Below are positions 3,699 through 54,429 of a stretch of DNA of 64,000 bases, piece after piece. A program made the translations under genes and the position numbers. Position 1 is the stretch's first letter. Each line of letters begins with the position of its first letter. The notes beneath the pieces are model-generated. The model was not told the DNA's origin, searched no databases, and saw only the letters and a list, made by a program, of their open reading frames with translations. The DNA comes from Bacteroidota bacterium (GTDB lineage Bacteria; Bacteroidota; Bacteroidia; JABDFU01). Location: the NCBI GenBank assembly GCA_016183775.1, contig JACPDY010000001.1, positions 2,190 to 66,189 of the forward strand, given 5' to 3'.

Positions 3699-3766
3699 TA
3701 CGACCATTGGGATAGCTTGCTGTGTCTGGCATTTGGCCATAAATATATTAAGCTTACCGGGAGCCT

Positions 3767-23095: not shown

Positions 23096-26000
23096 ATGAA
23101 AACAAAATTAGCCTTCGCCTTCTTATTAGTGGAAAAGCTGATTGTCACATCGGCATGTGCTCAAAATATGGACGATCTTTTCATGATAGGTCAGGCGTCT
23201 TATCGACAAGACGATATGTTTAATGAATTAAGCGAATCAGAGAAAGCCGGAATTTATAATAATATTGCAGCAACACCCATTGCATTCAGAAAAAATGAAG
23301 GCCAATGGGATAATAGAACTTCTTCAAATGAGGAGCGGATATTGTATCAGGGATCTTCTCCCGGATGGAATGCGAATATTTATTTCATGAAGCATAAACT
23401 CAGTTTTGGTTTCATGAGAGAAAAAGAAGAACATGGTATTGACAGTATTACCGGCCAAATGCGTAAAGAGAGCTATGAATACTTAATATGGAATCTGCAC
23501 TTTAAAGGGGCTAATCCAGAAGTAAATATAACTGCTGAAGGGAAGGAAGGCAGTCGTACCAATTATTTAATTGGGAATGATTTTAGTAAACACGTCACTA
23601 ATGTTTCCGACTACAGAATGATAAAATACAATGATTTGTATGAGAATATTGATCTGCGTTATTACAGCACAGGTAAAAATTTCAAGTACGATTATATTTT
23701 AAAACCGGGATCGGATATAAGTAAGATACAAATGACATGTGAGGGTATTAAAAATGTACACATTAATGGAGAAGGACAATTAGAAATTAAAACAACTTGG
23801 GGAACATTGGTTGAGGAAATGCCCGAATCGTATCAAATTATTAATGGGGGGAAGAAAAATATAAAAATAATTTATCGGGTGTTGAATGATACCACATTTG
23901 GTTTTAACGCAACTGAAGAATATAACAGATCGTTTCCGGTTATTATTGACCCCATTATTTATAAATGGGGAACCTATCTTGGAAGTACCACAACTAATGT
24001 AGGTTTTGGTTACTCGAGAGATATAACAGTGGACAGCAAGGGTTATGTATATGGAACAAGTTTTTACAATCTTTCATTCCCAACTACCGCAGGTGTTTAT
24101 GATCAAACTTATAATGGGGCTTCTTGTGGGGCCTGCCCTACTGGTCAGGATTATTATTTAGGTGATATTATAGTTTATAAGCTTAAGCCCGATGCAAGTG
24201 CTCTCGTGTGGGCAACTTATATAGGAGGTTCTAAAGACGAGTGGGGAGTGGGTATTGCTGTTGATGAAGCCACAAATGAAGTGATCATAAGAGGAATGAC
24301 ATCATCAAGCAATTTTCCTACTACCGCAGGAGCTTATGATAATAGTTTTAACGGGGTTACAGATGCAGTAGTTTGTAAATTAAATGCAACTGCGGGGAAC
24401 ACATTGATCTATTCAACATACATTGGAGGAACTGATGCAGATGAAACGATCGGATTTAATATTAATGATATCGGGTATAACCAAAGTACTAAAAATGTAT
24501 ATGTGGTAGATTATACACTATCAACTGATTTTCCAATGACTCCGGGTTGTTATGATCCGACTTACAATGGAGGAGGGGATGCTGTAGTTTTTGTTTTAAA
24601 TCCGGGTGGCAATGGGAATGCTGATCTTAAATATGCGTCATACCTGGGAGGTACAGGGCTGGACCGTCCATTTAGCATAGGATACCATCAAAATTATGGT
24701 AAAATGGCTGTCACAGGGATTACTCGTTCTACAGATTATCCGGTAACTGTCAATGCTCACAAAAATACATTTCAGGGTGGGTTGCAGGATGCCTTTATGT
24801 TTATATTAAATCCTGCCGGTAGTGGTGCAGGTGATTTGATCTATTCGACATATGTCGGCGGGAGTGATAATGATTATTCACAGACCATACATGTAAATTC
24901 GATTGGAGAATCTGCAATTTCGGGTTTTACTAACTCAAACAATTTTTCGGCTATTACAGCCGGCTCCTATGATCCTTCTTTCAACACTTGTGTTGTTTCG
25001 GGAAACTCCAACATTTTTATGGTTAAGTTTAATCCAATAGGAAATGTTGTATTTGGCACCTTCTTTGGTGACGGGGCATGGTCAGCCGGTAATGGGATAT
25101 GGGTAACAGAGTCAGGTGAAGTTTTCCTTTCGGGTGAAGTAGGAGACGGTTCGGGAGGTTGTAATATACCTACAACCCCTTGCGCATATGATAATTCCTT
25201 AGCTGGGAGCTCTGACCAATTCTTAGCAAAATTTAATGCTTCGGGAAGTAATTTACTATATGCAACATATATTGGCGGTGGCAGAGCTGATTACCACGCT
25301 TCCGGACTCTTTTATAGCGGCGACTGTTCACAAGAAGTTTATATAGCTGGGGCTAGCCATTCATTTGATTTTCCTGTTACTGCAGGCGTGGTTCAACCTG
25401 TACATAATGATCCAACCGGGTTATTGGACAAACCTGTGGTGTATAAATTCAAGCCGGTAATAACACCAAACTTTACAAATTCTGCCGGTACTCAATGCAA
25501 TTCACCAATTCTGTTTACTGATCTGTCTGCGGGTAATTGTATATGGAAAGCAGGCGCATGGTTACCAACCACCTGGCAATGGAGTTTTGGAGATGGAGGA
25601 GCATCTACTCAACAGAATCCCTCACACATTTATACCACGACAGGAACGTATACTGTAAAATTAATAGTTGGGTGTCCAATGGATAGCATTATTAAAACTA
25701 TTACTGTCACAGGAGTTTGCGGTATGACGGTTACAGCAACAACTGCAAACGTCTGCTCCGGGTCTTGTGCAGCTGTAACATCAAGCGCTGCCGGAGGCGC
25801 AGTTCCTTACACCTATCTCTGGAATACAGGATCTACTGCTCAGAACATAAATCCTTGTCCTGTTTCAACAACCACATATACGGTAACAATAACTGACGCA
25901 GGAGGAATAACAGCTACTTCAACAGCTGTAGTTACGGTTAACCCGGTTGTAAGTGTAACTGCTACACCAACAAATATCAGCTGTAGCGGTACTGCCAATG

Positions 26001-26392
26001 GCAGTGTTCTGGCAAATCCCGGGAGTGGTACGTCACCTTATACTTATAACTGGAGCAATGGCCAAGCCACTCAAGCTGTCTCAGGTTTGTCTCAGGGAAA
26101 TTATACAGTAACGGTAACCGACAATAAGGGATGCAAAGCAACTGCTGCAACAATCATAATTTCACCCCCCGTTATTACGGGTCAATTTGCCAAAGGTACT
26201 TCTGCTTGCACGGGTTGTGGTTGCAAAGAATGGATATTGGTTAGCGCCACAGGAGGTACAAGCCCATACAGCTATTCATGGCCTGATGGATATGTGAACA
26301 GATATAAAAATCAACTTTGCCCCGGAACTTACTCGGTAAATATTAAAGACAAAAATGGATGTAGTATCAATGTTAATCTCAGCGCGCCTTGA
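23096..26392 (+). CDS. Giant secreted SBBP / PKD / SprB-repeat protein, paralog 3
   Basis: 1098 aa with the signal-like N-terminus MKTKLAFAFLLVEKLIVTSACAQ. It has SBBP-type blades (W.TYIGG..D...), a PKD domain (WQWSFGDGGASTQQNPSHIYTTTGTYTVKL), a Cys-variant repeat (VCSGSCAAVTSSAAGGAVPYTYLWN...NINPCP), a SprB repeat, and the terminal CTGCGCKEW module. Confidence 0.9.
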   Translation: MKTKLAFAFLLVEKLIVTSACAQNMDDLFMIGQASYRQDDMFNELSESEKAGIYNNIAATPIAFRKNEGQWDNRTSSNEERILYQGSSPGWNANIYFMKHKLSFGFMREKEEHGIDSITGQMRKESYEYLIWNLHFKGANPEVNITAEGKEGSRTNYLIGNDFSKHVTNVSDYRMIKYNDLYENIDLRYYSTGKNFKYDYILKPGSDISKIQMTCEGIKNVHINGEGQLEIKTTWGTLVEEMPESYQIINGGKKNIKIIYRVLNDTTFGFNATEEYNRSFPVIIDPIIYKWGTYLGSTTTNVGFGYSRDITVDSKGYVYGTSFYNLSFPTTAGVYDQTYNGASCGACPTGQDYYLGDIIVYKLKPDASALVWATYIGGSKDEWGVGIAVDEATNEVIIRGMTSSSNFPTTAGAYDNSFNGVTDAVVCKLNATAGNTLIYSTYIGGTDADETIGFNINDIGYNQSTKNVYVVDYTLSTDFPMTPGCYDPTYNGGGDAVVFVLNPGGNGNADLKYASYLGGTGLDRPFSIGYHQNYGKMAVTGITRSTDYPVTVNAHKNTFQGGLQDAFMFILNPAGSGAGDLIYSTYVGGSDNDYSQTIHVNSIGESAISGFTNSNNFSAITAGSYDPSFNTCVVSGNSNIFMVKFNPIGNVVFGTFFGDGAWSAGNGIWVTESGEVFLSGEVGDGSGGCNIPTTPCAYDNSLAGSSDQFLAKFNASGSNLLYATYIGGGRADYHASGLFYSGDCSQEVYIAGASHSFDFPVTAGVVQPVHNDPTGLLDKPVVYKFKPVITPNFTNSAGTQCNSPILFTDLSAGNCIWKAGAWLPTTWQWSFGDGGASTQQNPSHIYTTTGTYTVKLIVGCPMDSIIKTITVTGVCGMTVTATTANVCSGSCAAVTSSAAGGAVPYTYLWNTGSTAQNINPCPVSTTTYTVTITDAGGITATSTAVVTVNPVVSVTATPTNISCSGTANGSVLANPGSGTSPYTYNWSNGQATQAVSGLSQGNYTVTVTDNKGCKATAATIIISPPVITGQFAKGTSACTGCGCKEWILVSATGGTSPYSYSWPDGYVNRYKNQLCPGTYSVNIKDKNGCSINVNLSAP

Positions 26393-40300: not shown

Positions 40301-41017
40301 ATGAGCATAAATCAAAACGAAGAAAAGATCCGTAAAGCGTTTGCCGATAAAACCTGGCAGGAAGTTAAAGCTACCGACTCCTGGAAAATATTTAAAATAA
40401 TGTCGGAGTTTGTTAATGGGTTTGAGAAGATGGGAAAGATCGGGCCCTGTGTTTCCGTATTCGGATCCGCGCGTACCAAACCTGAAAGTGAGTATTATAA
40501 ACTTGCCGAAGAGATCGCTTTTAAACTTACACGCGAAGGATACGGTGTTATAACAGGCGGAGGTCCCGGAATTATGGAAGCCGCCAATCGGGGTGCAAAA
40601 GCCGGCGGCGGAAAATCAGTTGGTTTAAATATTGTTCTGCCTTTTGAACAGTCTTCAAATCCGTTTATTGATAAAGATAAAATAATCGATTTCGATTATT
40701 TTTTTGTGCGCAAAACTATCTTCCTTATGTATTCACAGGGTTTTATCGCGTTGCCGGGAGGCTTTGGTACGCTGGATGAATTATTCGAAGCCCTTACATT
40801 GATACAAACCACTAAAATAGCTCACTTCCCAATTGTACTTGCCGGAAAAAAATACTGGACAGGATTATTGGATTGGATTAAAACCACCATGCTTCTGGAA
40901 GAACATAACATCAGTGCTGAAGATCTTGATCTGTTTAAAGTAGTTGATTCGGCTGATGAAGCGGTGAAAGTAATTGTTGATTTTTATGCGCAATATTTGC
41001 TTAAACCCAATTTCTAA
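40301..41017 (+). CDS. LOG-family (TIGR00730-type) nucleotide phosphoribohydrolase
   Basis: GGGPGIMEAANRGA and PGGFGTLDELFE motifs. Confidence 0.85.
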   Translation: MSINQNEEKIRKAFADKTWQEVKATDSWKIFKIMSEFVNGFEKMGKIGPCVSVFGSARTKPESEYYKLAEEIAFKLTREGYGVITGGGPGIMEAANRGAKAGGGKSVGLNIVLPFEQSSNPFIDKDKIIDFDYFFVRKTIFLMYSQGFIALPGGFGTLDELFEALTLIQTTKIAHFPIVLAGKKYWTGLLDWIKTTMLLEEHNISAEDLDLFKVVDSADEAVKVIVDFYAQYLLKPNF

Positions 41018-41084
41018 CGGTTTATTAATTTCGTTACATCTTTTGATCAGGGCTGCCAGTTTAATACTCACACTGCAATGATTT

Positions 41085-41120
41085 CAGGGATGACATCGCT
41101 TCCAAGCGATGTCATCCCTG
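41085..41120. terminator. Perfect 16-bp palindrome CAGGGATGACATCGCT-tcca-AGCGATGTCATCCCTG between convergent genes
   Basis: It lies between the LOG-family stop codon (41017) and the giant gene A stop codon (41125). The left arm recurs at 20079. Confidence 0.6.
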
Positions 41121-41124
41121 ATTA

Positions 41125-44100
41125 TTATGGAGCTGTCAGGCTGATGTTAACACTGCATCCGTTTTTATCCTTCACGTTTATGGAATATATTCCCGGGCAA
41201 AGTTGATTTTTATACCGGTTCGCATAGCCATCCGGCCATGTGTAGCTGTATGGGTTAGTACCTCCTGCAGCATTTACCATTATCCATTCTTTACAGCCAC
41301 AACCACTACAGCTTGCCGTACCCTTTGTAAATTGTCCGGCTAAAGGAGGTGGAGAAAGTATCGTAGCTATTGATATTGCACTGCAGCCTTTACTATCAGT
41401 TACTGTAACGGTATAATTTCCCGCGCTCAAACCTGAAACCTGGAACCCGGAACCCAATCCATTACTCCAGTTATAAGCAAAGGGTGAAGTCCCTCCTCCT
41501 GGATTTGCGAATGAGCTACCGTTTGTACCACCATTACAAGTTATGTTGGTTGGTGTTATGGTTACAGTAACAGCAGGATTAACTGTAACTACTGCTGTTG
41601 AGGAGGACGTATTACCCCCGGAGTCAGTTACAGTTATGGTGTAAATTGTGGTTGTAACAGGACATGGATTTATATTTTGTGTAGTGGCGCCATTGTTCCA
41701 CAAATAGGTATAAGGACCTGTGCCGCCTGTGCTACTTGATGTAATTGCTGCGCAGGAACCCGGACATACCGAGCTGCCGGTAGCTGTAACTGTTGGGCCA
41801 TTACAATTGGTGATAGTAATGTTCAGTGTTATTGTGCTGCTGCAGCCTGCATTCGTTACTGTATGGGTAACACTATATACCCCGGCAGTTAAAAAAGTAT
41901 AAGAGAAATTTGCGGTTGTACCGCTTACATTTGCAGGTGTTAATGGAGAAATTACCCAGCTATACGTGCCTATTGATCCTATATTGGTAAAGGTTACCGC
42001 GGCGCCCAGGCAAGCAGGAGAATTTGTAAATGCAGCAGAAACAGGACTTGTGCCTGTAATGGAATATGATCTGGTCGCAGTACACCCATTGACATCCGCT
42101 ACTGTTACCGTATAGTTGCCGGTAGCAAGGCCGGAAGCATTTTGTGTAGTAAAGCCATTGCTCCAATTATAGGTATAAGGTACTCCTGCATTTCCATTTA
42201 CCGTTACTGATGCGCTGCCACTTGTGGTACAAGTGATATTTGTGCTTGATCCTGTAAGTGACAGTGGAAATACCGGAGTAACTGTTCCTGTAACACTACA
42301 TCCGTTAGCATCTGTTACAGTAACCGTATATGGATTGATATTTAATCCGTTGGCTGTTGCTGATGCCTGGCCATTGCTCCATAAATAGGAGTAAGATGGT
42401 GTTCCGTTTGTAGGGTATACAGTTGCAGTACCACTATTATTCCCGCATGACCATTGCGTTGTAAAACCCGCAACCAGTTGCAGAGGCTGGGTGATAGTTA
42501 CAGTTTGTTTGGCTGTGCAGCCGTTTTTATCAGTTACTGTTACTGTATAGGTCCCCGCTCCAATGTTGTTTGCTACAGATGTAGTTTGTGAGTTACTCCA
42601 CAAAAAAGTATACGGAGTAGTACCTCCTGAAGGGTTTGCTGATGCAGTTCCGGTCATGCTTCCATAGCAAAGTGTATTACTTGCAGTTGTTGTTAATGTT
42701 ATTCCGCCCGATGGAACTATAGTTACTGATTGTGAGCCGCCACAACCGCCATTGTCTGTAACAGTTACTGTATAGGAACCTGCTCCCAGGCCGCTGGATG
42801 TACTGGTAGTTTGCCCGTTACTCCATATATAAGTATACGGTGCTGTGCCGCCCGTTGTACCTACTGTTGCTGTTCCGTTGGAGAAAGAGCAGGTATTGGA
42901 AGTGGGTGTAGTAACCAGTGTTAATACACTTCCTGCTCCGGTTATAGTGTAATAAACAGTATCACGATTAATTATACATGAAGCATCTTTTACTTCCGTC
43001 CAATAATTACCCGGGCAAAGTCCCGTAACAGTATTACTGTTGGTACTTGCGTTTATCGTGCTGCTGCCATTGCTCCAGGCATAACTGTAATTTGGAATAG
43101 CGCAATTTACAACCACGGTGGCACTGCCATTACAGCCACAACCAGTAACATTAACCTGGCTTTGTATATAAGCAGGTTTTTCCGGAATGAATTTTGCGAT
43201 ATATACATCATCATCTCCGTTATGTGAATTATCAAAATAAGCTCCGCCACCCGGGTTAGTTGTGGGATAAGTTGCATTGTTTACAACTCCTCCCGAAGTT
43301 GCATCCGACTCATGTCCCACGGAACTCCACTCTCCGGCAATAAATAAATTTCCATTGTTGTCTGTTGCCAATGGACAGCGAAAGTCACTTCCGTTGCCTC
43401 CAAAATGTGTAGTCCAATCCAATACCCCGGAATTAGAGAAGCGCGTTATGAAAATATCGTATGACATAAAAGGACTCGTATTTCCGCTTGACATATTGAA
43501 GCCACCTTTGTATGATGCACTATATGAACAAGAAAGAGATTTAACCGGGATATTAGTCGACGAGGTTTCAAAAGTAACATATACCCTATTGCAATTGTCT
43601 ATTGCAATATTGGAATTTGTTGAGCCAGAATATTGATTGGCTAACATTGATTCAATTCCTGTGCCGCCATAATAAGTTGCCCAAAGCAATACTCCGCTAT
43701 TGTTGAATTTCAAAATAAAAGCGTCAGATTGGCCAGCATTGGTGTTTTGAAAATATGTACCACCACCTGGATTGACAAGGCGGCCTAATGCATTTAAGTT
43801 TGTTGAAGTGGTACCCCCTGAAGCAAAAATGTTACCCGCTCTATCAATAGCTAATGAAAAACTTATACTAAAGTTTATCCCAAAGGCAGAAACTTCATTG
43901 TTGTTTCCTCCATAGTAAGTTGCCCAAAGCAATACTCCGCTATTACTGAATTTTAAAATAAATGCATCATCCAGGCCCGCATTGGTATTTTGAAAATACG
44001 CGCCACCTCCGGGATTGACCAGGCGGCCCAATACATTCAGATCCGTTGAGCTGGTCCTTCCAATAACTACAATGTTACCCATGTTGTCAACAGCAACAGA

Positions 44101-45621
44101 ACTCGCCAAGTCTCCTCCCGTACCGCCATAATAAGTACCCCATAATAAAACTCCCGCATTTGAAAACTTAACTATAAATGCATCCCTGCCTCCGCCACTC
44201 CCCTGGAAGTATGTTCCGGCATTTAGTAAATTTAAATTAGGGCCATCAGCTCCTCCAACTACATATACATTGCCACTATTATCTACTGCAACCGAAGTAG
44301 CCTTTTCCCATCCGAGGGCATTGACATTGGTATCCCCATAAGAGGTACTCCATATTAATGTTCCGCCGGAATTAAATTTCAGGATCAATGGATCATATCC
44401 ACGTATGCCGGGTTGAAAATATGCACCGCCGCCTGGATTTACCATGCGCCCCAGTGTATTTAAATCTCCTGCACAAGTCCATCCTACAACGAATACATTT
44501 CCTGTGGCATCAAAGGCAATACCATATAGCTCTGTATGACAGCTTCCGCCGTAATAAGTAGCCCATTGCATCACCCCATTATTGCTAAATTTGAGAATAA
44601 GGCCATGATAATTATATCCGACAGGGCCTACATTTTGAAAATATGCGCCGCCACCCTGATCAAGTAAAGTAAGGCCGGGACTTAAGGTGTAAGCCGCAAC
44701 ATATATATTTCCATTTACATCTGCTGAAATATCAATAGCTCCCTCATTTTGATTTGAACCATAAAATGTTGCCCATGAAAGCTGTGGATCAATGATCAAA
44801 GTCTGATGCTGCATATTAATACATCCCGGATCAATTTGATACGAAATTTCTGTTTCAAACCCTTCGTCGGTATTGTTAGGGCTGCATCTGTTAACTTTTG
44901 TTTTATTAAACCGTGTTGCAATTATCTTCCCCGTTTCCTTTACATAGCTCACAGGATTTTTTTCTGTCAATAGTCCTAAAGGAGTTTCAATTTTTATATT
45001 GCCTTGTTCATCAATTTCCAATTTGTTTTTTGAACGATAAAGCAGTCGGATTTGATTGCGGTCAGCACCCGGATGTACTACAAAATCATATTTAAATCCC
45101 GATTCATTTGTATTATACAGCACCCAGTCAACTCCGGGATAAACATCCTGAATGATTATTTTGTCGTATTCCCTGACAGTAACTCCACCATAAACATTAC
45201 CGGAGTAAAACTGTTTAAAATAAGCCGAAGCCCCGTCTTTTATTATCTTCTCACTTTTAATAATTCCTCCCTTAAGATCCATATCCACGCGGACTCTGTT
45301 TGTATTTAAGGTCAAGAGATCACTTGCGGCTCTATTCGTTTCCCTTTCTCCTTCAGCTTCTTCTTTCTCAAATAACATAAATGTTAATCCTTTTTCGGTA
45401 ACATATAGGTCAATATTAGGGGCTTCGGCTTTAAACAATACAAAAGGTATCGACTTGCCGTTGATGTCAGTCATCTGCCCTTTGTTTTCCAGGAATTTTA
45501 CAGGTTGGTTGTGGAGCCATTGCTGCGCCTGCTTTTTGAGTTCAGTTTCGTTCTCTGTTTTTGCCGCAAACAAGGATAGGCCTGTGAGAAAAAAAGAGAG
45601 GTATGTGAAATTTTTTTTCAT
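41125..45621 (-). CDS. Giant secreted SBBP / SprB-repeat protein, tandem copy A (last of three)
   Basis: The ATG at 45619-45621 gives MKKNFTYLSFFLTGLSLFAAKTENE..., so the track ORF is extended by 8 codons. It has the N-domain FLENKGQMTDINGKSIPFVLF, about 10 SBBP-type blades, about 8 SprB-type repeats, and the terminal CSGCGCKEW module. Confidence 0.9.
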   Translation of the reverse strand: MKKNFTYLSFFLTGLSLFAAKTENETELKKQAQQWLHNQPVKFLENKGQMTDINGKSIPFVLFKAEAPNIDLYVTEKGLTFMLFEKEEAEGERETNRAASDLLTLNTNRVRVDMDLKGGIIKSEKIIKDGASAYFKQFYSGNVYGGVTVREYDKIIIQDVYPGVDWVLYNTNESGFKYDFVVHPGADRNQIRLLYRSKNKLEIDEQGNIKIETPLGLLTEKNPVSYVKETGKIIATRFNKTKVNRCSPNNTDEGFETEISYQIDPGCINMQHQTLIIDPQLSWATFYGSNQNEGAIDISADVNGNIYVAAYTLSPGLTLLDQGGGAYFQNVGPVGYNYHGLILKFSNNGVMQWATYYGGSCHTELYGIAFDATGNVFVVGWTCAGDLNTLGRMVNPGGGAYFQPGIRGYDPLILKFNSGGTLIWSTSYGDTNVNALGWEKATSVAVDNSGNVYVVGGADGPNLNLLNAGTYFQGSGGGRDAFIVKFSNAGVLLWGTYYGGTGGDLASSVAVDNMGNIVVIGRTSSTDLNVLGRLVNPGGGAYFQNTNAGLDDAFILKFSNSGVLLWATYYGGNNNEVSAFGINFSISFSLAIDRAGNIFASGGTTSTNLNALGRLVNPGGGTYFQNTNAGQSDAFILKFNNSGVLLWATYYGGTGIESMLANQYSGSTNSNIAIDNCNRVYVTFETSSTNIPVKSLSCSYSASYKGGFNMSSGNTSPFMSYDIFITRFSNSGVLDWTTHFGGNGSDFRCPLATDNNGNLFIAGEWSSVGHESDATSGGVVNNATYPTTNPGGGAYFDNSHNGDDDVYIAKFIPEKPAYIQSQVNVTGCGCNGSATVVVNCAIPNYSYAWSNGSSTINASTNSNTVTGLCPGNYWTEVKDASCIINRDTVYYTITGAGSVLTLVTTPTSNTCSFSNGTATVGTTGGTAPYTYIWSNGQTTSTSSGLGAGSYTVTVTDNGGCGGSQSVTIVPSGGITLTTTASNTLCYGSMTGTASANPSGGTTPYTFLWSNSQTTSVANNIGAGTYTVTVTDKNGCTAKQTVTITQPLQLVAGFTTQWSCGNNSGTATVYPTNGTPSYSYLWSNGQASATANGLNINPYTVTVTDANGCSVTGTVTPVFPLSLTGSSTNITCTTSGSASVTVNGNAGVPYTYNWSNGFTTQNASGLATGNYTVTVADVNGCTATRSYSITGTSPVSAAFTNSPACLGAAVTFTNIGSIGTYSWVISPLTPANVSGTTANFSYTFLTAGVYSVTHTVTNAGCSSTITLNITITNCNGPTVTATGSSVCPGSCAAITSSSTGGTGPYTYLWNNGATTQNINPCPVTTTIYTITVTDSGGNTSSSTAVVTVNPAVTVTITPTNITCNGGTNGSSFANPGGGTSPFAYNWSNGLGSGFQVSGLSAGNYTVTVTDSKGCSAISIATILSPPPLAGQFTKGTASCSGCGCKEWIMVNAAGGTNPYSYTWPDGYANRYKNQLCPGIYSINVKDKNGCSVNISLTAP
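41430..41457. repeat. In-CDS heptamer array AACCTGA AACCTGG AACCCGG AACCCAA
   Basis: Four units. This is the complement of the GGGTTCC/GGTTTCA family, and it encodes ..GSGFQVSGLS.. in the penultimate SprB repeat of gene A. It could be partly explained by Gly/Ser codons. Confidence 0.5.
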
Positions 45622-45641
45622 GGGTATAGTATTGTCCTTAA

Positions 45642-48600
45642 TCACGGTGCTGTAAGATTAACGTTAACACTGCAGCCATTTTTATCTTTTACATTTATAG
45701 AATATGTCCCAGGGCAAAGTTGATTTTTATACCGGTTCACATATCCATCCGGCCAGGTGTAGCTATAGGGCTCTATACCCCCTGTTGCATTTATCATTAT
45801 CCATTCTTTACAACCACAACCAATACAGTTGGCCGTGCCTTTGGTAAATAATACTGAAAGGGGAGGAGGAGAAGTTATCGCTGTAGTTGAAGTTGCGGTG
45901 CAACCTTTGCTGTCTGTCAACGTGATGGTATAATTTCCAGCACTCAAACCTGAAACAGTTGAACCTGAAACTAAATTACTCCAGCTGTATGTAAACCCGG
46001 GCGTACCACTGGTTGGATTTGCATTCGCGTTGCCGTTTGTACCACCATTGCAGCTTATGTTGGTTGCAGTTGTGTTAACAGTTACTGCAGGGTTAACTGT
46101 TACTACTGCTGTTGAAGTGGATGTATTTCCACCGGTATCTTTTATTGTTACCGTGTAGGTAGTAGTAACTAAAGGGCATGGTGCCGGTGTATTGTTTTGT
46201 GTGGTCACACCGTTGCTCCATAGGTAGGTATATGGAGGGGCTCCTCCTACAGCACTCGCTGTTATTGTTGCGCACACGCCCGGACAAACAGATGCGCCTG
46301 TGGTAGTTATAGCTGGGCTATTGCAGTTTGTAACATTTATATATTGGGTAACTGCGTTTGTGCAGCCGGCATTAGTTACAGTATGAGTAACGCTGTAAGT
46401 TCCGGCGGTTAAAAAAGTGGTGCAGAAGTTTGTTGTTGTTCCGCTAACATTCACAGGAGCTTCGATAGTCCATGAATGAGTGCCTGCAGAACCGGTATGG
46501 GTAAAACAGGATGGTTGATTTAAACAAACAGGTGGGCTGGTAAAGGTTGCAGAAGCCGCGCTTGATCCTGTTATGGTAACGGAACGGGTAACAGTACAGC
46601 CATTCCCATCGGTTACTGTAACTGTATATGTTCCCGCCGCAAGGTTTTTATTCAGGCAGGGGTTGCCACAATTTCCTCCTACTGTTGAACCGTTGCTCCA
46701 ACTGTAAGTATAAGAGTATAATGTGGGACCTGAAGCAGTTACCCCTGCGTAACTGTATCCGGTACAGGCAATGTTTTCGCTACTGGTACTAACAGACATT
46801 GGTTCATAAATTGATGTGAGTTCAGATGAGGCACATCCTTTGGAGTCGGTAATGGTAACAGAATAGGCTCCCAAACCTAAACCGGTTGCCGTTGGTGATG
46901 TGGAGCCGGTACTCCATGTGTACAAATAAGGAGGAAATCCACCTGATGCGCTTGCTGTGGCTGTACCCAAATTTGCCGCACAAACCGGTTGGGTAATTTT
47001 CGGAAGAAGCGGAGTGGGCTGACTTAGTACAATGGTGGATACTGAGACACAGGAACCCGTATTTACTGTTACAGTATATGTTCCGGCTTGTAAGTTTGTT
47101 GCCTGATTTGAGACCGATGAAGTAATGGCCTTAGTGCCATTGCTCCAGCTATACGTATAAGGTCCGGCGGGCCCGTTGCTGACTGTTACTATTGCGCCTC
47201 CTGTTGCGCCGAAACATTTGATACTTGGGTTTTCAACAATGGAGGCAGACATACTGCATCCGCAATTAATATCGCTGAGAGAAAACCTGGCCGTATCCTT
47301 ATTTCCGCAGGCGGAAGTTACTTCAACCCAGTAATTACCCGCACACAAGCCGGATATGCTGTCGGAGGTAACTGCGGTATTTAAAACTGTGCGTCCGGTA
47401 CTCCATATATAGCTTATTCCTGGCATATCGCATTGGGCGGTTACCTTTACTTTTCCGTTACAAGCATTGCATCCAATAGGATTATGTTGTTCGCTTTCCA
47501 GCGTCGTGGAAGATTCCGGTTTAAAACCAAGTTTGGCAATATACATATCATCCCTGCCACCATTGAATGAATTATTGAAATAGGTTCCGACACCGGCATT
47601 TGCAAGCGGATAAGTAGTGTTGCTTACTGCTGCGGAATTGAATTCAGTCCACTCTCCGCCCACAAACAAATTTCCGACATTGTCTAACGTTATCGGACTT
47701 CGAAAATCATTTCCATTGCCGCCAAAATAGGTACCCCATTGTAAAACTCCTGTATTGGAAAAACGAGCTAAGTAAATATCATTACTCCCGTTAGAAGTGC
47801 CGTCAAAATAAGCGCCTGAAAGAAATTGCACAGGAATGTCGGATGACCCTGTTTCAAACGACACAAAGAGGTGCCCGCATTCATCTGTTTGTATATTGTT
47901 ATGAGTTAAGAGTTCTGCGGGCCCCCGCGCAAGAATTGAAGGCAGTAGGCCAAGTGAGTATTCTGCCGAACTTCCCCCGTAATAAGTTGCCCAAAGACGC
48001 ATTCCGTTGTTGTCGAATTTAAGGATAAATGCATCGGAGTAGCCACTTAATGTTGATTTATAGTAGGAGTTTCCGCCTGGACTAAGGGTAGGCAGATCGG
48101 TTGATTTGGTTGAACCTGTTATAAAAACATTACCGCTACAATCGGTGGCAATAGAATAGCCATAATCATTTCCCTTTCCGCCATAAAAAGTCGCCCACAA
48201 GCGCACCCCATTATTACTGAATTTTAAAATGATAACATCTCCATTAAATACACCGGCGTAATTAGATCCTCCTCCATAACTTTGGGAATATGTTCCTGCC
48301 GGGGTGTATATAGGGAAAGACGATGAATTTAGGGAGGGGTTTTCAAAAACTCCGCTTACTCCTGTTATAAATACATTTCCAAAATTATCAACAACAATTG
48401 AATGCCCTGCCTCATCTTCATTTCCGCCATAACAAGTTGCCCATAGGAGTATACCTGTGTTGTTAAATTTTAGAATGAATAAATCCATCATACCAGAACT
48501 GTTTGGTACCTGAAAATAGGCCCCTCCTCCCGGATTATAAGTTGGAAATTGTGGGGGATTTCCTACTGTCATCATTGAGTTTGTCCATCCCGTTACAAAT

Positions 48601-50081
48601 ACATTTCCCATGTTGTCTGTTACGATAGAATTTCCCCAGTCAGTATTCCCACCACCATATAAAGTGGCCCAAAGGCGAATTCCGGAATTACTGAATTTAA
48701 GGATAAAAACATCGGTTTTATTAGAAAAACCATTGCTGAAATATGCACCACCAGCGGGATTGTACGTGGGGAATGGAGCGACATTGTCAACCCGTTCTGA
48801 GCGCCCTGTTACAAAAATATTTCCCATATTGTCCGTTGCCATAGACTGTGGCATTTCAAACCCGTTTCCTCCATAAAAAGTAGACCAAAGAAGAACACTT
48901 CCAGAAGTAAATTTCATTATAACTAAGTCAAATCCTTGAAATCCTCCCGCATACACTCCGTCAAAATAGGCTCCGCCGCCGGGGTTTAATGTGGGGAAAC
49001 TATTTTGTCCGGCATTCGGTCCGCTAGCCGTGTAAGCACAAATAAATAGATTGCCGGCTGCATCAGTGGCAACATCCATGATACCTCCATCTTGAGCACC
49101 TGCGCCATCTAGAAGAGTACTCCAAATAAGCTGTGGGTCGATGATTAAAGTAGATGTGAGATATGAGATGTGAGATAAGAGATGAAACGAAACAGAAGTT
49201 TCGTACCCTTCATCAACCTGCGTTGGTCGGCAAGAGTTTACATTTGTTTTTACAAATTTAGTTCTGATGCTCTCCCCTGTTTCTTTAATGTAACTAACCG
49301 GCGCGTTTTCTGTTAATGTGCCGTAAGGCGTTTTTATTTCAATGTTTCCCTGTTCATCAAACCGAAGTTTTTTTCCTGAGCGGTAAAGCAATTTAATGTT
49401 CGCTGGAACAGCACCGGGATGTACTTCAAAATCATATTTAAATCCTTTGTTATTGCTGTTATAAAATATCCAGTCGATGCCTGGATATACATTTTTAATA
49501 ATTATTTTGGAGTATGTGTGTACATCTGTCACTCCATTGGGACAATGTCCCAGAAAATATTGGTTAAACATTAAAGACTTGCCTTCCGTAACAATGTTTT
49601 CTTTTTTAATGCTGGCACCCTCCAGGTCCATGTCAATCCGGCTCCAGTTAAATGATTTAAATTCTTCTTCCCCTGTACTGAGCGTAGTCAAAGCATCTTC
49701 TTCTATTGATCCGTACGGTTCGCCTTGTTTATTTTTTTCTTTATTATTGCCTCGGTGTAATCCTTCCGGTTCTTTTTCTTCCTCATCTTTTGTCACACTG
49801 AGCCCCGTCGAAGCGTCTTTTATATCTTCCATGAAACAATAAGTAAGTCCTTTTTCTGTAACAAAGAGGTTCATGCCTGGTGCGGTTACCTGGTATAAAA
49901 CAAAGGGTACAGGTTTTCCCTGCATGTCTGTCATCTGTCCTTTGTTCTCTGTAAATTGTACGGGTTGTTCTTTCAGCCATTGCTGTGCCTGCTTTTTGAG
50001 TTCAGCTTCGTTCTCTGTTTTTGCTGCAAACAATGAAAGGCCTGCGAGAAAAAAAAGTAGGTATGTGAAAAGTTTTTTCAT
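45642..50081 (-). CDS. Giant secreted SBBP / SprB-repeat protein, tandem copy B
   Basis: 1479 aa with the signal MKKLFTYLLFFLAGLSLFAAKTENE and the same architecture as A and C. A 20-nt spacer separates it from gene A. Confidence 0.9.
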   Translation of the reverse strand: MKKLFTYLLFFLAGLSLFAAKTENEAELKKQAQQWLKEQPVQFTENKGQMTDMQGKPVPFVLYQVTAPGMNLFVTEKGLTYCFMEDIKDASTGLSVTKDEEEKEPEGLHRGNNKEKNKQGEPYGSIEEDALTTLSTGEEEFKSFNWSRIDMDLEGASIKKENIVTEGKSLMFNQYFLGHCPNGVTDVHTYSKIIIKNVYPGIDWIFYNSNNKGFKYDFEVHPGAVPANIKLLYRSGKKLRFDEQGNIEIKTPYGTLTENAPVSYIKETGESIRTKFVKTNVNSCRPTQVDEGYETSVSFHLLSHISYLTSTLIIDPQLIWSTLLDGAGAQDGGIMDVATDAAGNLFICAYTASGPNAGQNSFPTLNPGGGAYFDGVYAGGFQGFDLVIMKFTSGSVLLWSTFYGGNGFEMPQSMATDNMGNIFVTGRSERVDNVAPFPTYNPAGGAYFSNGFSNKTDVFILKFSNSGIRLWATLYGGGNTDWGNSIVTDNMGNVFVTGWTNSMMTVGNPPQFPTYNPGGGAYFQVPNSSGMMDLFILKFNNTGILLWATCYGGNEDEAGHSIVVDNFGNVFITGVSGVFENPSLNSSSFPIYTPAGTYSQSYGGGSNYAGVFNGDVIILKFSNNGVRLWATFYGGKGNDYGYSIATDCSGNVFITGSTKSTDLPTLSPGGNSYYKSTLSGYSDAFILKFDNNGMRLWATYYGGSSAEYSLGLLPSILARGPAELLTHNNIQTDECGHLFVSFETGSSDIPVQFLSGAYFDGTSNGSNDIYLARFSNTGVLQWGTYFGGNGNDFRSPITLDNVGNLFVGGEWTEFNSAAVSNTTYPLANAGVGTYFNNSFNGGRDDMYIAKLGFKPESSTTLESEQHNPIGCNACNGKVKVTAQCDMPGISYIWSTGRTVLNTAVTSDSISGLCAGNYWVEVTSACGNKDTARFSLSDINCGCSMSASIVENPSIKCFGATGGAIVTVSNGPAGPYTYSWSNGTKAITSSVSNQATNLQAGTYTVTVNTGSCVSVSTIVLSQPTPLLPKITQPVCAANLGTATASASGGFPPYLYTWSTGSTSPTATGLGLGAYSVTITDSKGCASSELTSIYEPMSVSTSSENIACTGYSYAGVTASGPTLYSYTYSWSNGSTVGGNCGNPCLNKNLAAGTYTVTVTDGNGCTVTRSVTITGSSAASATFTSPPVCLNQPSCFTHTGSAGTHSWTIEAPVNVSGTTTNFCTTFLTAGTYSVTHTVTNAGCTNAVTQYINVTNCNSPAITTTGASVCPGVCATITASAVGGAPPYTYLWSNGVTTQNNTPAPCPLVTTTYTVTIKDTGGNTSTSTAVVTVNPAVTVNTTATNISCNGGTNGNANANPTSGTPGFTYSWSNLVSGSTVSGLSAGNYTITLTDSKGCTATSTTAITSPPPLSVLFTKGTANCIGCGCKEWIMINATGGIEPYSYTWPDGYVNRYKNQLCPGTYSINVKDKNGCSVNVNLTAP
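49151..49185. repeat. In-CDS 5 x 7-nt array, TGAGATN family
   Basis: GTAGATG TGAGATA TGAGATG TGAGATA AGAGATG. It is read on the - strand as ..LLSHISYLTST.. in the linker before the first propeller blade of gene B. Confidence 0.85.
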
Positions 50082-50103
50082 GGGTATAGCATTGTCTTAT
50101 TAA

Positions 50104-53100
50104 TCAGGGTGCTGTAAGATTAACATTCACACTGCATCCATTCTTATCCTTAATGTTAATTGTATATGTTCCCGGACAAAGCTGATTTTTATACCTGTTC
50201 ACATATCCATCCGGCCATGTGTAGCTGTATGGATTTGTACCTCCTGCAGCGTTAATAATTATCCATTCTTTGCATCCACAACCACTGCAGCTTGCTGTTC
50301 CTTTTGTAAATTGTCCTGACAAGGGTGGAGGAGAAGTTATAGTGGCTGTTGATGTTGCTGTACAACCTTTGCTATCTGTTACTGTAACTGTGTAGATCTG
50401 AGATGTGAGATTTGAGATCTGAGATGTTGTTCCGCCATTACTCCAGGTGTAAATAAATCCTGGCGTACCATTGTTTGGATTTGCATTCGCGCTGCCGTTT
50501 GTGCTACCGTTGCAGTTTATGTTGGTTACAGTTGTGCTTAAGCTAACAGAAGGATTAACATTGACTACTGCGGTTGTAGTAGATGTATTTCCGCCGGAGT
50601 CGGTTACGGTTACAGTATATATTGTAGTTGCAGCAGGGCAGGGGTTTATATTTTGTGTAGTTGCGCCGTTATTCCACAAATAGGTATAAGGGCCGGTGCC
50701 GCCTGTACTACTTGATGTTATTGCTGCACAGGAGCCCGGACATACAGAGGTGCCGGTAGCTGTAACCGTTGGGCCATTACAATTAGTTCCATTTATATAT
50801 TGGGTTACTGTATTGGTGCATCCTGCGTTTGAAACTGTATGGGTAACACTATAGGTACCTGCGGTTAAAAAGGTATAACAAAAATTTGTTGTTGAGCCGC
50901 TTACACTCACAGGTGGTCCAATGGACCACGTATGTGTGCCTGCAGAACCCGTATGTGTAAAACAAGTGGCCTGATTTATGCAGGCTGGCGGGGCAGTAAA
51001 AGTTGCTGAAGCTGCACTTGATCCTGTAATGGTAACCGAACGGGTAACTGTACATTCATTACCATCGGTTACTGTAACTGTATATGTTCCCGCCGCGAGG
51101 TTTTTATTCAGGCAGGGGTTGCCACAATTTCCTCCTACTGTAGAGCCATTACTCCAGCTGTAAGTATAAGGGGATGTGCCAAAATTAGTGGTTATGCCTG
51201 CATAACTGTACCCGCTACAGGTAATATTTCCGCTGCTAGGACCCACAAGCATTGGTTCCTTAATTGATGTGAGTTCAGATGAAGTGCATCCTTTGGAGTC
51301 GGTAATGGTAACTGTATATGTTCCCAGATTTAATCCAGTTGCTGCTGGTGATGTGGAGCCGGTACTCCATGAGTACAAATAAGGAGGGGATCCACCTGTG
51401 GCGCTTGCTGTGGCTGTACCTAAATTTGCCGCGCAAACCGGCTGGGTAATTTTAGGGATAACAGGAAGTGGTTGACTTAGCGTTACGGAGGATACGGAGA
51501 CACAGGAACCGGTAATTACTCTTACAGTATATGTTCCGGCTGGCAAGTTTGTTGCCTGATTTAAGGTCGAAGAAGTAATGGCGTTAGTGCCATTACTCCA
51601 ATTATAGGTATAAGGGCCGCCGGGCCCGTTGCTTACTGTTACTATCGCGCCTCCTGTTGTGCCTATACATTTGATACCGGGGCTTTCAATAATGGAGGCA
51701 GACATACTGCATCCGCAATTAACATTGCTAAGTGAAAACCAGGCTGTGTCTTTTTCCCCGCAGGCGGAAGTTACTTCAACCCAGTAATTACCCGCGCATA
51801 AACCGGATATACTATCGGATGCCGCCGTGATGTTCAAAACAGTTCGTCCGGTACTCCATACATAACTTAAGCCGGCCATATCGCATTTGGCGGTTACTTT
51901 TGCTTTTCCGTTGCAGGCGCTGCATCCCACAGGATTATCCTGCCGGCTTTCCAGCTTATTTATTTCCGGCTCAAAACCAAGTTTGGCAATATACATGTCA
52001 TCCCTGCCGCCATTGAATGAATTATCATAATAAGCCCCTCCACCCGGAGTTGTAAGCGGATAGGTAGCATTGTTTATTGATGGGATATTATTAATAGTCC
52101 ACTCTCCGGCAACGAACAAATTTCCGAAATCATCTAACGCTATTGGGCTTCGAAAATCATTCCCATCGCCGCCGAAATAGGTACCCCATTGTAAAACTCC
52201 TGTATTGGAAAAACGGGCCAGGTAAATATCGTTATACCCGTTAAAAGTTCCGTCAAAATAGGCTCCTGAAAGAAATTGCACAGGAATGTCGGATGACCCT
52301 GTTTCAAACGACACAAAGAGATGCCCGCATTCATCCGTTTGTATATTGCTCCAGGTTGGTATAGCCGGTACAACACCATCATCGTATTCATTCATAGCAC
52401 CCCCATAATAAGTTGCCCAAAGCCTTTTTCCGGCGTTGTCGAATTTAAGGATAAACGCATCGTTGCTGCCACTTAATATTGATTTATAGTAGGAATTTCC
52501 GCCGGTATTAAGGGTAGGTAGATCGGTTGATTTAGTTGAACCTGTTACAAAAACATTACCGCTGCAATCGGTGGCTATGGAATTGCCAACATCAGAATCA
52601 GAACCGCCATAAAAAGTTGCCCAAAGCTGAACGCCACTGCTGCTGAATTTTAAAATAAAAGCGTCTCCACCATACAATCCATAACACATGCAAACAGTTG
52701 AGAATGGGCCCCCGCCATAAGCCTGAAAGTATGCCCCTGCCGGGCCCGGATTGGTGGGGAAATTATTTGATGGCGTTTTAGTTGCACCTGTTTTTCCTGT
52801 TACAAATACATTTCCAATTCCATCCACAGCTATGGAGTTGCCGGTATCTTCCGCAGAACCGCCATAAAAGGTTGCCCATTGCCTTATTCCCGAATTTGTG
52901 AATTTCAGAATAAACGCATCTGTTCCATTGGCTGCGTTTGCTCCCTGGAAGTATGCTCCTCCCAAGGCGTTTTGAGTTGGGAAAGTAGTTTGGGGAGGGG
53001 TATTATAATGAGAGATTGTGTACCCTGTCACAAACACATTTCCCGCATTATCCGTAATTATAGAATTTCCTCGGTCATCTCCACCACCTCCGTAATAGGT

Positions 53101-54429
53101 GGCCCACAGACGAACTCCGGCATTATTGAATTTCAGAATAAAGACGTCGGAACCATTCATAGTCCCGGAACCTCCTGCAAATGCCCCCTGGAAGTATGCT
53201 CCCGCACCTGGATTTTGAGTGGGAAAATTCGCTGTTGATGAATTATAAATGGGGTCATATCCGGATCCCGTATACCCCGTTACAAAAACATTTCCGGCAT
53301 TGTCAACAGTTATGGAATTGGCGAGATCTTTTTCGCCGCCACCATAATAAGTTGACCAAAGGCAAACACCTGATGGATTAAATTTTAAAATCACTGCATC
53401 TAAATATGCGAAAAAAGCCCCCCCTCCGTACACTCCCTGAAAATAAGCGCCGTTTCCGGGATTTATTGTAGGAAAAGTATTCTGAGTCACGTTGCCACCT
53501 GTATAACCACAAATAAATAGATTGCCAGCTGCATCAGTAGCAATATCCATGAAACCTCCATCCTGACTGGTCCAACTGGGAGAACTTGCGCCATCGTAAA
53601 ATGTTGACCAAACAAGTTGAGGGTCGATGATTAGGGTTCCGGGTTCAAGGTTCCGGGTTCCGTGTTCTAAATTAAATACAACTTGTGTTTCGTACCCTTC
53701 ATCAACCTGTGTGGGGCGGCAAGTAGTTACTTTTGTTTTTACAAATTTAGTTCTGATGTTCTCACCGGTTTCTTTAATGTAACTTATCGGCGCGTTTTCG
53801 GTTAATGTGCCGTATGGTGTTTGTATTTGTATATTGCCTTCTTGGTCAAAATGAAGGCGCTTGCCGGACCGGTAAAGTAATTTAATACTACCGGGATCAG
53901 CCCCGGGATGTACAGCAAAATCATATTTAAATCCTTTTTCGCCGCTGTTGTAAAATACCCAGTCAATACCGGGATAGATTTCTTTAATAGTAATTTTTGT
54001 ATAACTATGCACATCCAATACCCCATCTGGACAACCTGCCTTGCCGGCAGGCAGGTGACCCAGGTAGTACTGGTTAAAAGAATTTGATCTGCCTTCGGTT
54101 ATAATATTCGATTTTTTAATAGAAGCTCCTGCAAGGCCCATGTCAATGCGGCTCCAGTTAAATGGTTTAAATTCGCCTTCCTCCTCCGTAGGTACGGGTA
54201 ATCCCGTTTTTTCTTCGCGTTCGTTTTCCATGCTGAGCGCCGTCGAAGCATCTTTTACTTCTTCCATAAAGCAATACGTAAGTCCCTTTTCAGTAATAAA
54301 AAGATTCACGCCCGGTGCTCCGACCTGGAAAAGAACAAATGGTACAGGTTTGCCATTCATATCTGTCATAATAGTGGAGAGCATTAATATTCCATATTTG
54401 CAGGAAATATTTAAAAATCTATGGTTCAT
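50104..54429 (-). CDS. Giant SBBP / SprB-repeat protein, tandem copy C, 5'-truncated (no signal peptide; possible silent or pseudogene copy)
   Basis: The reading frame is intact, but similarity to copy B begins exactly at the Met codon at 54367-54369 (MTDMNGKPVPFVLFQ...). The 20 upstream codons (MNHRFLNISCKYGILMLSTI) are unrelated. The signal peptide and the AAKTENE...QAQQWL...F.ENKGQ segment are missing. Confidence 0.75.
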   Translation of the reverse strand: MNHRFLNISCKYGILMLSTIMTDMNGKPVPFVLFQVGAPGVNLFITEKGLTYCFMEEVKDASTALSMENEREEKTGLPVPTEEEGEFKPFNWSRIDMGLAGASIKKSNIITEGRSNSFNQYYLGHLPAGKAGCPDGVLDVHSYTKITIKEIYPGIDWVFYNSGEKGFKYDFAVHPGADPGSIKLLYRSGKRLHFDQEGNIQIQTPYGTLTENAPISYIKETGENIRTKFVKTKVTTCRPTQVDEGYETQVVFNLEHGTRNLEPGTLIIDPQLVWSTFYDGASSPSWTSQDGGFMDIATDAAGNLFICGYTGGNVTQNTFPTINPGNGAYFQGVYGGGAFFAYLDAVILKFNPSGVCLWSTYYGGGEKDLANSITVDNAGNVFVTGYTGSGYDPIYNSSTANFPTQNPGAGAYFQGAFAGGSGTMNGSDVFILKFNNAGVRLWATYYGGGGDDRGNSIITDNAGNVFVTGYTISHYNTPPQTTFPTQNALGGAYFQGANAANGTDAFILKFTNSGIRQWATFYGGSAEDTGNSIAVDGIGNVFVTGKTGATKTPSNNFPTNPGPAGAYFQAYGGGPFSTVCMCYGLYGGDAFILKFSSSGVQLWATFYGGSDSDVGNSIATDCSGNVFVTGSTKSTDLPTLNTGGNSYYKSILSGSNDAFILKFDNAGKRLWATYYGGAMNEYDDGVVPAIPTWSNIQTDECGHLFVSFETGSSDIPVQFLSGAYFDGTFNGYNDIYLARFSNTGVLQWGTYFGGDGNDFRSPIALDDFGNLFVAGEWTINNIPSINNATYPLTTPGGGAYYDNSFNGGRDDMYIAKLGFEPEINKLESRQDNPVGCSACNGKAKVTAKCDMAGLSYVWSTGRTVLNITAASDSISGLCAGNYWVEVTSACGEKDTAWFSLSNVNCGCSMSASIIESPGIKCIGTTGGAIVTVSNGPGGPYTYNWSNGTNAITSSTLNQATNLPAGTYTVRVITGSCVSVSSVTLSQPLPVIPKITQPVCAANLGTATASATGGSPPYLYSWSTGSTSPAATGLNLGTYTVTITDSKGCTSSELTSIKEPMLVGPSSGNITCSGYSYAGITTNFGTSPYTYSWSNGSTVGGNCGNPCLNKNLAAGTYTVTVTDGNECTVTRSVTITGSSAASATFTAPPACINQATCFTHTGSAGTHTWSIGPPVSVSGSTTNFCYTFLTAGTYSVTHTVSNAGCTNTVTQYINGTNCNGPTVTATGTSVCPGSCAAITSSSTGGTGPYTYLWNNGATTQNINPCPAATTIYTVTVTDSGGNTSTTTAVVNVNPSVSLSTTVTNINCNGSTNGSANANPNNGTPGFIYTWSNGGTTSQISNLTSQIYTVTVTDSKGCTATSTATITSPPPLSGQFTKGTASCSGCGCKEWIIINAAGGTNPYSYTWPDGYVNRYKNQLCPGTYTINIKDKNGCSVNVNLTAP
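50392..50426. repeat. In-CDS 5 x 7-nt array, TGAGATN family
   Basis: GTAGATC TGAGATG TGAGATT TGAGATC TGAGATG. It encodes ..TSQISNLTSQIY.. in the penultimate SprB repeat of gene C. Confidence 0.85.
53634..53668. repeat. In-CDS 5 x 7-nt array, GGGTTCM family
   Basis: GGGTTCC GGGTTCA AGGTTCC GGGTTCC GTGTTCT. It encodes ..EHGTRNLEPGT.. at the site homologous to 49151-49185. Confidence 0.85.
54033..54057. repeat. In-CDS copy of the AACCTGCCT..CCGGCAGGCAGGT palindrome (in-frame 21-nt insertion)
   Basis: AACCTGCCTTGCCGGCAGGCAGGTG matches 21071-21095 at 22 of 25 positions. It adds LPAGKAG inside the otherwise conserved GHCP.G motif. Confidence 0.85.

Follow-up and report, generated by a model that had tools for sequence, protein, structure and literature searches.

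A mosaic tandem array of three giant adhesin-like genes in an uncultured groundwater Bacteroidota bacterium, probably shaped by a few ancient exchanges

In this article, I will discuss three very long genes that lie head to tail in a 64,000-nt stretch of contig JACPDY010000001.1 (hereafter the window, to which all positions refer), a sequence that comes from a groundwater metagenome and belongs to an uncultured Bacteroidota bacterium. The three open reading frames (ORFs), named C, B and A in their order of transcription, are co-directional on the minus strand and separated by near-identical spacers differing by two substitutions and one 2-nt indel. An earlier note on this DNA had described them as a triplication of a giant-protein gene with alternating similarity; the ORF calls agree with its coordinates, its two spacers match letter for letter and all the protein motifs it quoted are present. 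Three tandem copies they are, but the recency implied by "triplication" is overstated, since at the protein level A matches B and C with just 43-45% identity, a distance much like that to homologs elsewhere (41-47%). Pfam places DUF7948 (PF25778) at the N-terminus of each protein (E 1.9e-38 in A, 1.8e-43 in B and 6.8e-38 in C), followed by SBBP (PF06739) and then SprB (PF13573) repeats, above the gathering threshold in all three, and the closest of the 847 homologs found were named "SBBP repeat-containing protein" by their sources. By this domain content A, B and C are members of a DUF7948-SBBP-SprB family of large Bacteroidota proteins, whose products would be large secreted or surface adhesin-like proteins, presumably exposed on the cell; the order along the protein is signal peptide, DUF7948, SBBP beta-propeller, a stalk of SprB and PKD-like repeats with the immunoglobulin-like (Ig) fold, and a Cys-rich terminal module.

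The three copies change partners along their length. Of the informative sites in a codon alignment with 3999 ungapped columns, 989 join B and C against A, 370 join A and C against B and 332 join A and B against C, and these classes cluster beyond what permutation of all sites produces (p<=2e-4). In sliding windows the nearest pair is B-C over columns 0-4100, as had been claimed for the N-domain and propeller, and then A-C over columns ~4110-4490, where their nucleotide identity reaches 0.79-0.85 vs 0.63-0.72 for the other pairs; beyond column ~4490 there are short AB and AC patches. When only synonymous differences are counted, in codons with identical amino acids, the patterns still differ between regions (chi2=60.8, p=3e-10) and the AC cluster persists (p<=1e-4), with BC, AC and AB counts of 48, 26 and 37 in columns 189-2000, of 103, 20 and 22 in columns 2000-4050, and of 13, 23 and 9 in columns 4130-4490. 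Adding paralog D2 gives four-taxon parsimony-informative splits that also differ regionally (chi2=53.7, p=5e-8) and an incompatibility statistic like the pairwise homoplasy index that lies below its permutations (p<=0.002). No single tree whose relative branch lengths stay uniform fits A, B and C, and the alternation of nearest neighbours reported in the earlier note is borne out by both the sliding-window comparison and the clustering tests. One could nevertheless propose that no recombination took place, that ((B,C),A) holds throughout, and that constraint, lineage acceleration (for example in the C-terminal repeats of B) and ancestral residues mimic the switches; I consider this unlikely in view of the synonymous heterogeneity just described and of third-position identity in the A-C block, which is 0.64 for A-C but 0.45 for B-C and 0.43 for A-B.

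Synonymous divergence (dS) gives these blocks an age. Between A and either neighbour it is saturated nearly everywhere, and between B and C it is >1 in columns 0-2000, 0.26-0.9 in columns 2000-4050 and >1.2 from about column 4000, a variation of about five-fold along the gene that speaks against an unbroken common history. Within columns 4130-4490 the A-C value is 0.6-0.8 vs 1.6-2.9 for the other pairs. At the other end of the genes, A and B have in common the spacer and the 5' 30-50 codons (dS 0.24-0.5), with 89% nucleotide identity and dS 0.24 over the first 30 codons, and this block adjoins sequence that is saturated from codon 51, which again argues against an array without recombination. 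Every exchanged block has since diverged, with dS of at least 0.24 and no identical tract >56 nt. The ratio of nonsynonymous to synonymous divergence (dN/dS) between B and C is about 0.2, and the copies would thus have diverged under purifying selection after the exchanges. The identical B-C run quoted earlier as 52 nt is confirmed with exactly two occurrences, although its length is 53 nt; it reaches 56 nt in the alignment, which is mildly above chance within an 82%-identical region (p=0.014). Coordinates are collected in Table 1.

Table 1. Positions of the genes, spacers, shared blocks and other features of the C-B-A array in the window.
Feature	Positions	Strand	Remarks
Copy C	50104-54429	-	first gene of array; DUF7948, SBBP beta-propeller, SprB/PKD-like repeats and conserved terminal module (ORF, translation, Pfam)
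C/B spacer	50082-50103	-	22 nt, GGGTATAGCATTGTCTTATTAA
Copy B	45642-50081	-	middle gene, 1479 aa, signal peptide present (ORF, Pfam)
B/A spacer	45622-45641	-	20 nt, GGGTATAGTATTGTCCTTAA
Copy A	41125-45621	-	last gene, 1498 aa counted from ATG at 45621; alternative GTG start at 45645
Hairpin	41084-41121	.	17-bp stem, directly after copy A stop codon
Younger B-C block	B 46481-48210, C 50937-52636	-	dS 0.26-0.9, nucleotide identity 0.74-0.89
Older B-C block	B 48210-49907, C 52636-54342	-	nearest pair in protein; dS 0.8 to saturated
A-C block, Cys-variant repeat	A 41533-41887, C 50509-50863	-	84% identity in nucleotides, 87-92% in amino acids; dS 0.6-0.8
A-B 5' block	A 45486-45621, B 49946-50081	-	signal peptide and AKTENE.ELKKQAQQW; continuous with common spacer
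B-C identical run	47818-47870 and 52268-52320	+	53 nt
Terminal module	B 45645-45848, A 41128-41331, C 50107-50310	-	68 aa, Cys-rich, SprB-like, family-specific
C-specific penultimate-repeat variant	50352-50412	-	GGTTSQISNLTSQIY; variant type also in other genomes

The trees agree with much of this picture, the decisive maximum-likelihood and approximately unbiased (AU) runs having been made with 17-20 protein taxa. Sister placement of B and C receives support of 96-100 for three stretches, namely DUF7948, the final propeller blades and the PKD-like segment, and A still clusters with B and C in two segments. In the Cys-variant block A and C become sisters, with 87 in the Shimodaira-Hasegawa-like approximate likelihood ratio test (SH-aLRT) and an ultrafast bootstrap (UFBoot) of 89, and trees joining A and C receive 0.80 by resampling of estimated log-likelihoods (RELL). 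In the penultimate SprB repeat, C clusters with P0047, P0079, P0065 and P0096 (UFBoot 98) and B with P0055, P0011, P0062, P0010 and P0032; forcing B and C together costs 27.6 log-likelihood units (AU 0.041), so that their monophyly, and with it an undisturbed ((B,C),A) history, is rejected there, as are forced groupings of A with C (AU 0.014) and of all three copies (AU 0.027).

Homologs from other genomes help to separate exchange from inheritance. When 60-aa windows of A, B and C were compared with 116 homologs from other metagenomes, external proteins came out closest to A along aa 31-1230, B did so only for aa 1-60 (80%) and C for aa 1231-1320 (87-92%, the best external protein reaching 75%), and for the last ~220 aa of B the closest were external proteins, not C. 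No ortholog of A, B or C above 47% identity was found in a set of 5.8 billion proteins or in the GTDB genomes; the C-terminal ~270 aa, however, are 70-90% conserved between genomes that are otherwise <=47% identical, a conservation that an explanation by constraint can claim for itself. The same explanation gains from the terminal module, where the earlier note had seen A and C pair once more: the residues in question (GQFTKGTASCSGCGCKEW, AAGGTNPYSY) also occur in P0044, P0011 and P0040 of other genomes and are therefore retained ancestral states, not evidence of exchange, and A-C dS in the module is 1.18. The apparent "AB" patch, likewise, is a C-specific repeat variant (GGTTSQISNLTSQIY) also present in P0023 and P0044, and this occurrence of the amino-acid variant in other genomes points to an old repeat type rather than a fresh local rearrangement. 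Within the corresponding TSQISNL/TSQIYTV stretch, C has a direct repeat of 13 nt, ACATCTCAGATCT, its copies 21 nt apart.

Several observations weigh against exchange as the source of the mosaic. Topology tests do not decide the history of the Cys-variant block, where a tree made to join B and C survives (AU 0.13 with proteins, 0.04-0.27 with 5-taxon nucleotides), and the four-taxon splits are indecisive (BC 10, AC 14, AB 4); the A-C pairing noticed earlier in this repeat is seen in distance, dS and bootstrap, and it is chiefly the contrasts in distance and dS that carry the A-C patch. The states common to A and C in this block, moreover, are often the outgroup state, 20 of 54 matching both D2 and D3, as the account without recombination would have it. 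For the penultimate repeat, the taxa of the AU test were picked after the first tree had been seen, and AU tests on protein segments of 84-103 taxa were uninformative, with constrained searches beating the quick free search. Over their final 68 codons B and C differ with dS 1.75, the upstream 3' ends showing no special similarity, and part of the non-synonymous patterns could stem from rate shifts peculiar to certain lineages and regions. A single unequal crossover, giving B the 5' end of A and the body of C, would account for the duplicated junction and for the A-like 5' end of B; it was rejected as the sole event and cannot be the whole story, because those tails and the first 2 kb of B and C (dS >1) are too diverged.

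Could the genes be chimeras, produced by an assembler that switched between paralogs or strains in conserved repeats? The array is repeat-rich, the public Logan contigs fragment across it and one real assembly error does lie in the window, all of which would favor such an artefact. I nonetheless regard it as highly improbable, as the common blocks are 79-89% identical, not 100%, and collapse or switching among three copies cannot create them, and as independent contigs tell the same story. The latter come from three runs of one study at the same groundwater site (X1-X3), and their contigs, which show presence rather than absence and drop rare variants, match the array with 0 differences; those of X1 cover 40800-43934, 44561-46635 and 47841-50215, including both gene junctions and the A side of the A-C block joined to its unique flank. 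The one error concerns the start of copy C, whose homology to B begins in the window only at MTDM, with the signal peptide seemingly missing. Between 54369 and 54370 the window is without 111 nt (37 codons, in frame), for the X2 contig carries an insert exactly there and the X1 and X3 contigs continue into the same insert with matching loose ends. The 60 nt of it that can be recovered translate in frame to ...LSTI-LLFTLSAFAG...PVQFLENKGQ-MTDM, the missing piece encoding the remainder of the signal peptide and the PVQFLENKGQ motif. The apparent 5' truncation is an assembly deletion or a rare variant; the real copy C possesses a signal peptide of its own as well as the family's ENKGQ motif. Restoring the insert removes the main argument for C as a silent cassette, and a truncated C is rejected on the strength of these contigs; a useful by-product is the correction of an assembly error that made C look that way.

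This bears directly on the suggestion that the array is a working route to surface-protein variation, which in its strongest form would mean active diversification, by frequent gene conversion among the copies or from a silent donor, yielding many expressed variants in the style of pilE/pilS, vlsE or msp2. The co-directional copies with their common junction would suit such a system, as would the seeming lack of a signal peptide in C as the window gives it, yet the latter is the 111-nt deletion just described. No block has a dS below 0.24, and no identical run is longer than 56 nt. No inverted repeats of at least 30 nt were found, and an invertible element was rejected on that ground; no recombinase was found among the nearby ORFs scanned against Pfam. 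In the X1-X3 contigs, from which rare variants drop out, no alternative junctions appeared beyond joints with flanks of 20-33 nt, the level of repeat noise. All three copies are, moreover, under purifying selection, and B and C have similar numbers of private changes (370 vs 332). Active diversification is accordingly very unlikely, and the data do not support the suggested route to variation as a working one; there is no sign of a variation system that is programmed or active at present, and what is seen is ordinary tandem-family evolution.

Two further findings could still be counted in favor of more recent movement. In a different groundwater study (X4), a 99%-identical A is joined to unrelated sequence directly upstream of the ATG (45621-45660), and B and C are nearly absent among the contigs, which cannot prove absence; in X5 there is a 93% relative of A whose homology breaks off at 45533, codon ~30, about the extent of the strongest A-B block. 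Taken together, these contigs hint at possible strain-level differences in array content, the coverage of A by X4, X5 and X8 being confined to 42941-45621, without the 3' third. The other finding is a related tandem pair, P0013 then P0006 (L005, 72-8192), with a 12-nt spacer, which was compared with the orthologous pair P0015/P0007 of another metagenome-assembled genome (MAG). P0006 is 80-100% identical to its ortholog P0007 over most of its length and only 57-59% in the last ~150 aa, which instead resemble the neighbouring paralog (70-82%; clustering p<=1e-4). Segmental replacement of C-terminal repeats therefore recurs in the family, and neighbours exchanged on a shorter timescale in that related lineage. 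The last ~150 aa of P0006 are in part like the neighbouring paralog and in part of the GSGF(Q/R)VSGL type seen in copy A.

Considering all of this, the C-B-A locus is probably an old tandem paralog array that experienced a few ancient homologous-recombination events and then diverged. The exchanges, as I would infer them, took place between misaligned or neighbouring copies, by gene conversion or unequal crossing-over, with some donors possibly being paralogs outside the array, and the direction of each transfer can only be proposed. At least four histories are superimposed: one in which B and C share approximately aa 56-1255, comprising an older and a younger sub-block; one in which A and B share the intergenic spacer and the first 30-50 codons; one in which A and C share ~350 nt of the Cys-variant repeat; and one in which the penultimate repeat of B is of another type than that of C, both types being found in proteins of other genomes too. 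Each event would have been followed by divergence under purifying selection. Of the repeated segmental exchange postulated in the earlier note, then, a few ancient events remain (synonymous p=3e-10, A-B dS 0.24, penultimate-repeat AU 0.041), and the pairing in the terminal module does not, being ancestral. A more speculative extension, which I would put forward only tentatively, is that the C-terminal Ig-like repeats are exchangeable cassettes, a limited set of old types (for example GSGFQVSGL, LVSGSTVSGL and GGTTSQISNL) being shuffled among tandem and dispersed paralogs, perhaps even between genomes, with the conserved flanks, namely the PKD-like segment and the invariant terminal module, serving as homology arms. 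If this were true, uncultured groundwater Bacteroidota would possess a combinatorial repertoire of surface adhesins, and the shuffling would have been caught twice, in the window array and in the P0013/P0006 pair.

Returning to the preferred reading of a few ancient exchanges, the closest described analogue is the lpl tandem paralog cluster of Staphylococcus aureus, in which the unit of evolution consists of the 3' part of one ORF, the region between the genes, plus the 5' part of the next ORF (Tsuru and Kobayashi, 2008; PMC2568036). That cluster also consists of co-directional tandem paralogs for exported proteins (PMC2568036); the 5' and 3' parts of one ORF have incongruent histories, as in the C-B-A array; a boundary-crossing unit of spacer and following 5' end is common to neighbours; and recombination at conserved segments is the proposed cause. 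The window genes, however, are ~10 times longer and belong to another phylum and another protein family, they share only the spacer and the 5' 30-50 codons across the junction while the upstream 3' ends have dS >1, all their events are old, and the strain-to-strain rearrangement is only hinted at, by run X4.

Programmed gene conversion underlies antigenic variation at Neisseria pilE/pilS, Borrelia vlsE and Anaplasma msp2, and what the array has in common with these systems is segmental, non-reciprocal-looking exchange among surface-protein paralogs. Unlike them, it comprises three complete ORFs instead of a single expression site with silent partial cassettes, it is without long identical homology arms, its exchanges are ancient rather than occurring every generation, and no within-population variants are seen in the X1-X3 contigs, which drop rare ones. 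With respect to the proteins themselves, SprB and RemA of Flavobacterium johnsoniae are giant surface adhesins of the type IX secretion system (T9SS), and A, B and C resemble SprB-like adhesins in their SprB repeats (PF13573), Ig-like stalk domains and multiple paralogs per genome. The N-terminal DUF7948 and SBBP propeller are not known from SprB. Another difference is that neither the type A (Por_Secre_tail, TIGR04183/PF18962) nor the type B (PF13585/TIGR04131) sorting domain was matched at the C-termini of A, B or C in Pfam and NCBIfam, the 68-aa Cys-rich SprB-like module standing in this place instead; PF13585 is carried by many of the more distant homologs and not by the closest ones. An AlphaFold model of the last 140 aa (41128-41547, 45645-46064 and 50107-50526) consists of two Ig-like beta-sandwiches with a predicted local distance difference test (pLDDT) score of 80; its best PDB match, and hence a further likeness, is a fragment of the Aureispira grappling-hook protein GhpA (9flw; E 1.4e-3, 22% identity), followed by the adhesin SiiE, and the modelled fold fits an extracellular adhesin-like stalk.

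The C-B-A array reveals no new mechanism. What it offers is a view of a large adhesin-like family that is uncharacterised, abundant among the Bacteroidota of groundwater and soil, and without a recognisable T9SS sorting domain. The family evolves in tandem arrays, where recombination is patchy and concentrated in the C-terminal repeats, and this pattern is of use both in annotation and in deciding which segments to set side by side across genomes. Two to four family members occur on many MAG contigs, and the window itself contains three paralogs in addition to the array (699-3698, 5453-9514 and 23096-26392). The first of these, D1, has a very close homolog, P0093, in another public assembly (tree distance 0.06-0.14); none as close was found for A, B or C. 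No RNA runs containing the locus were found, and C, B and A are probably co-transcribed, which is plausible given that an S8 protease carrying a T9SS tail (PF18962 in Pfam) lies upstream on the same strand and that the hairpin behind A is the sole strong terminator-like structure within the cluster. The pattern of the 68-aa terminal module is invariant across all six window paralogs and in other MAGs. At the nucleotide level, too, this module is a very widespread and conserved element in groundwater and soil metagenomes, where the ~170 nt of copy B at 45676-45843 are matched at >=80% identity by dozens of contigs with a summed depth of 200-300.

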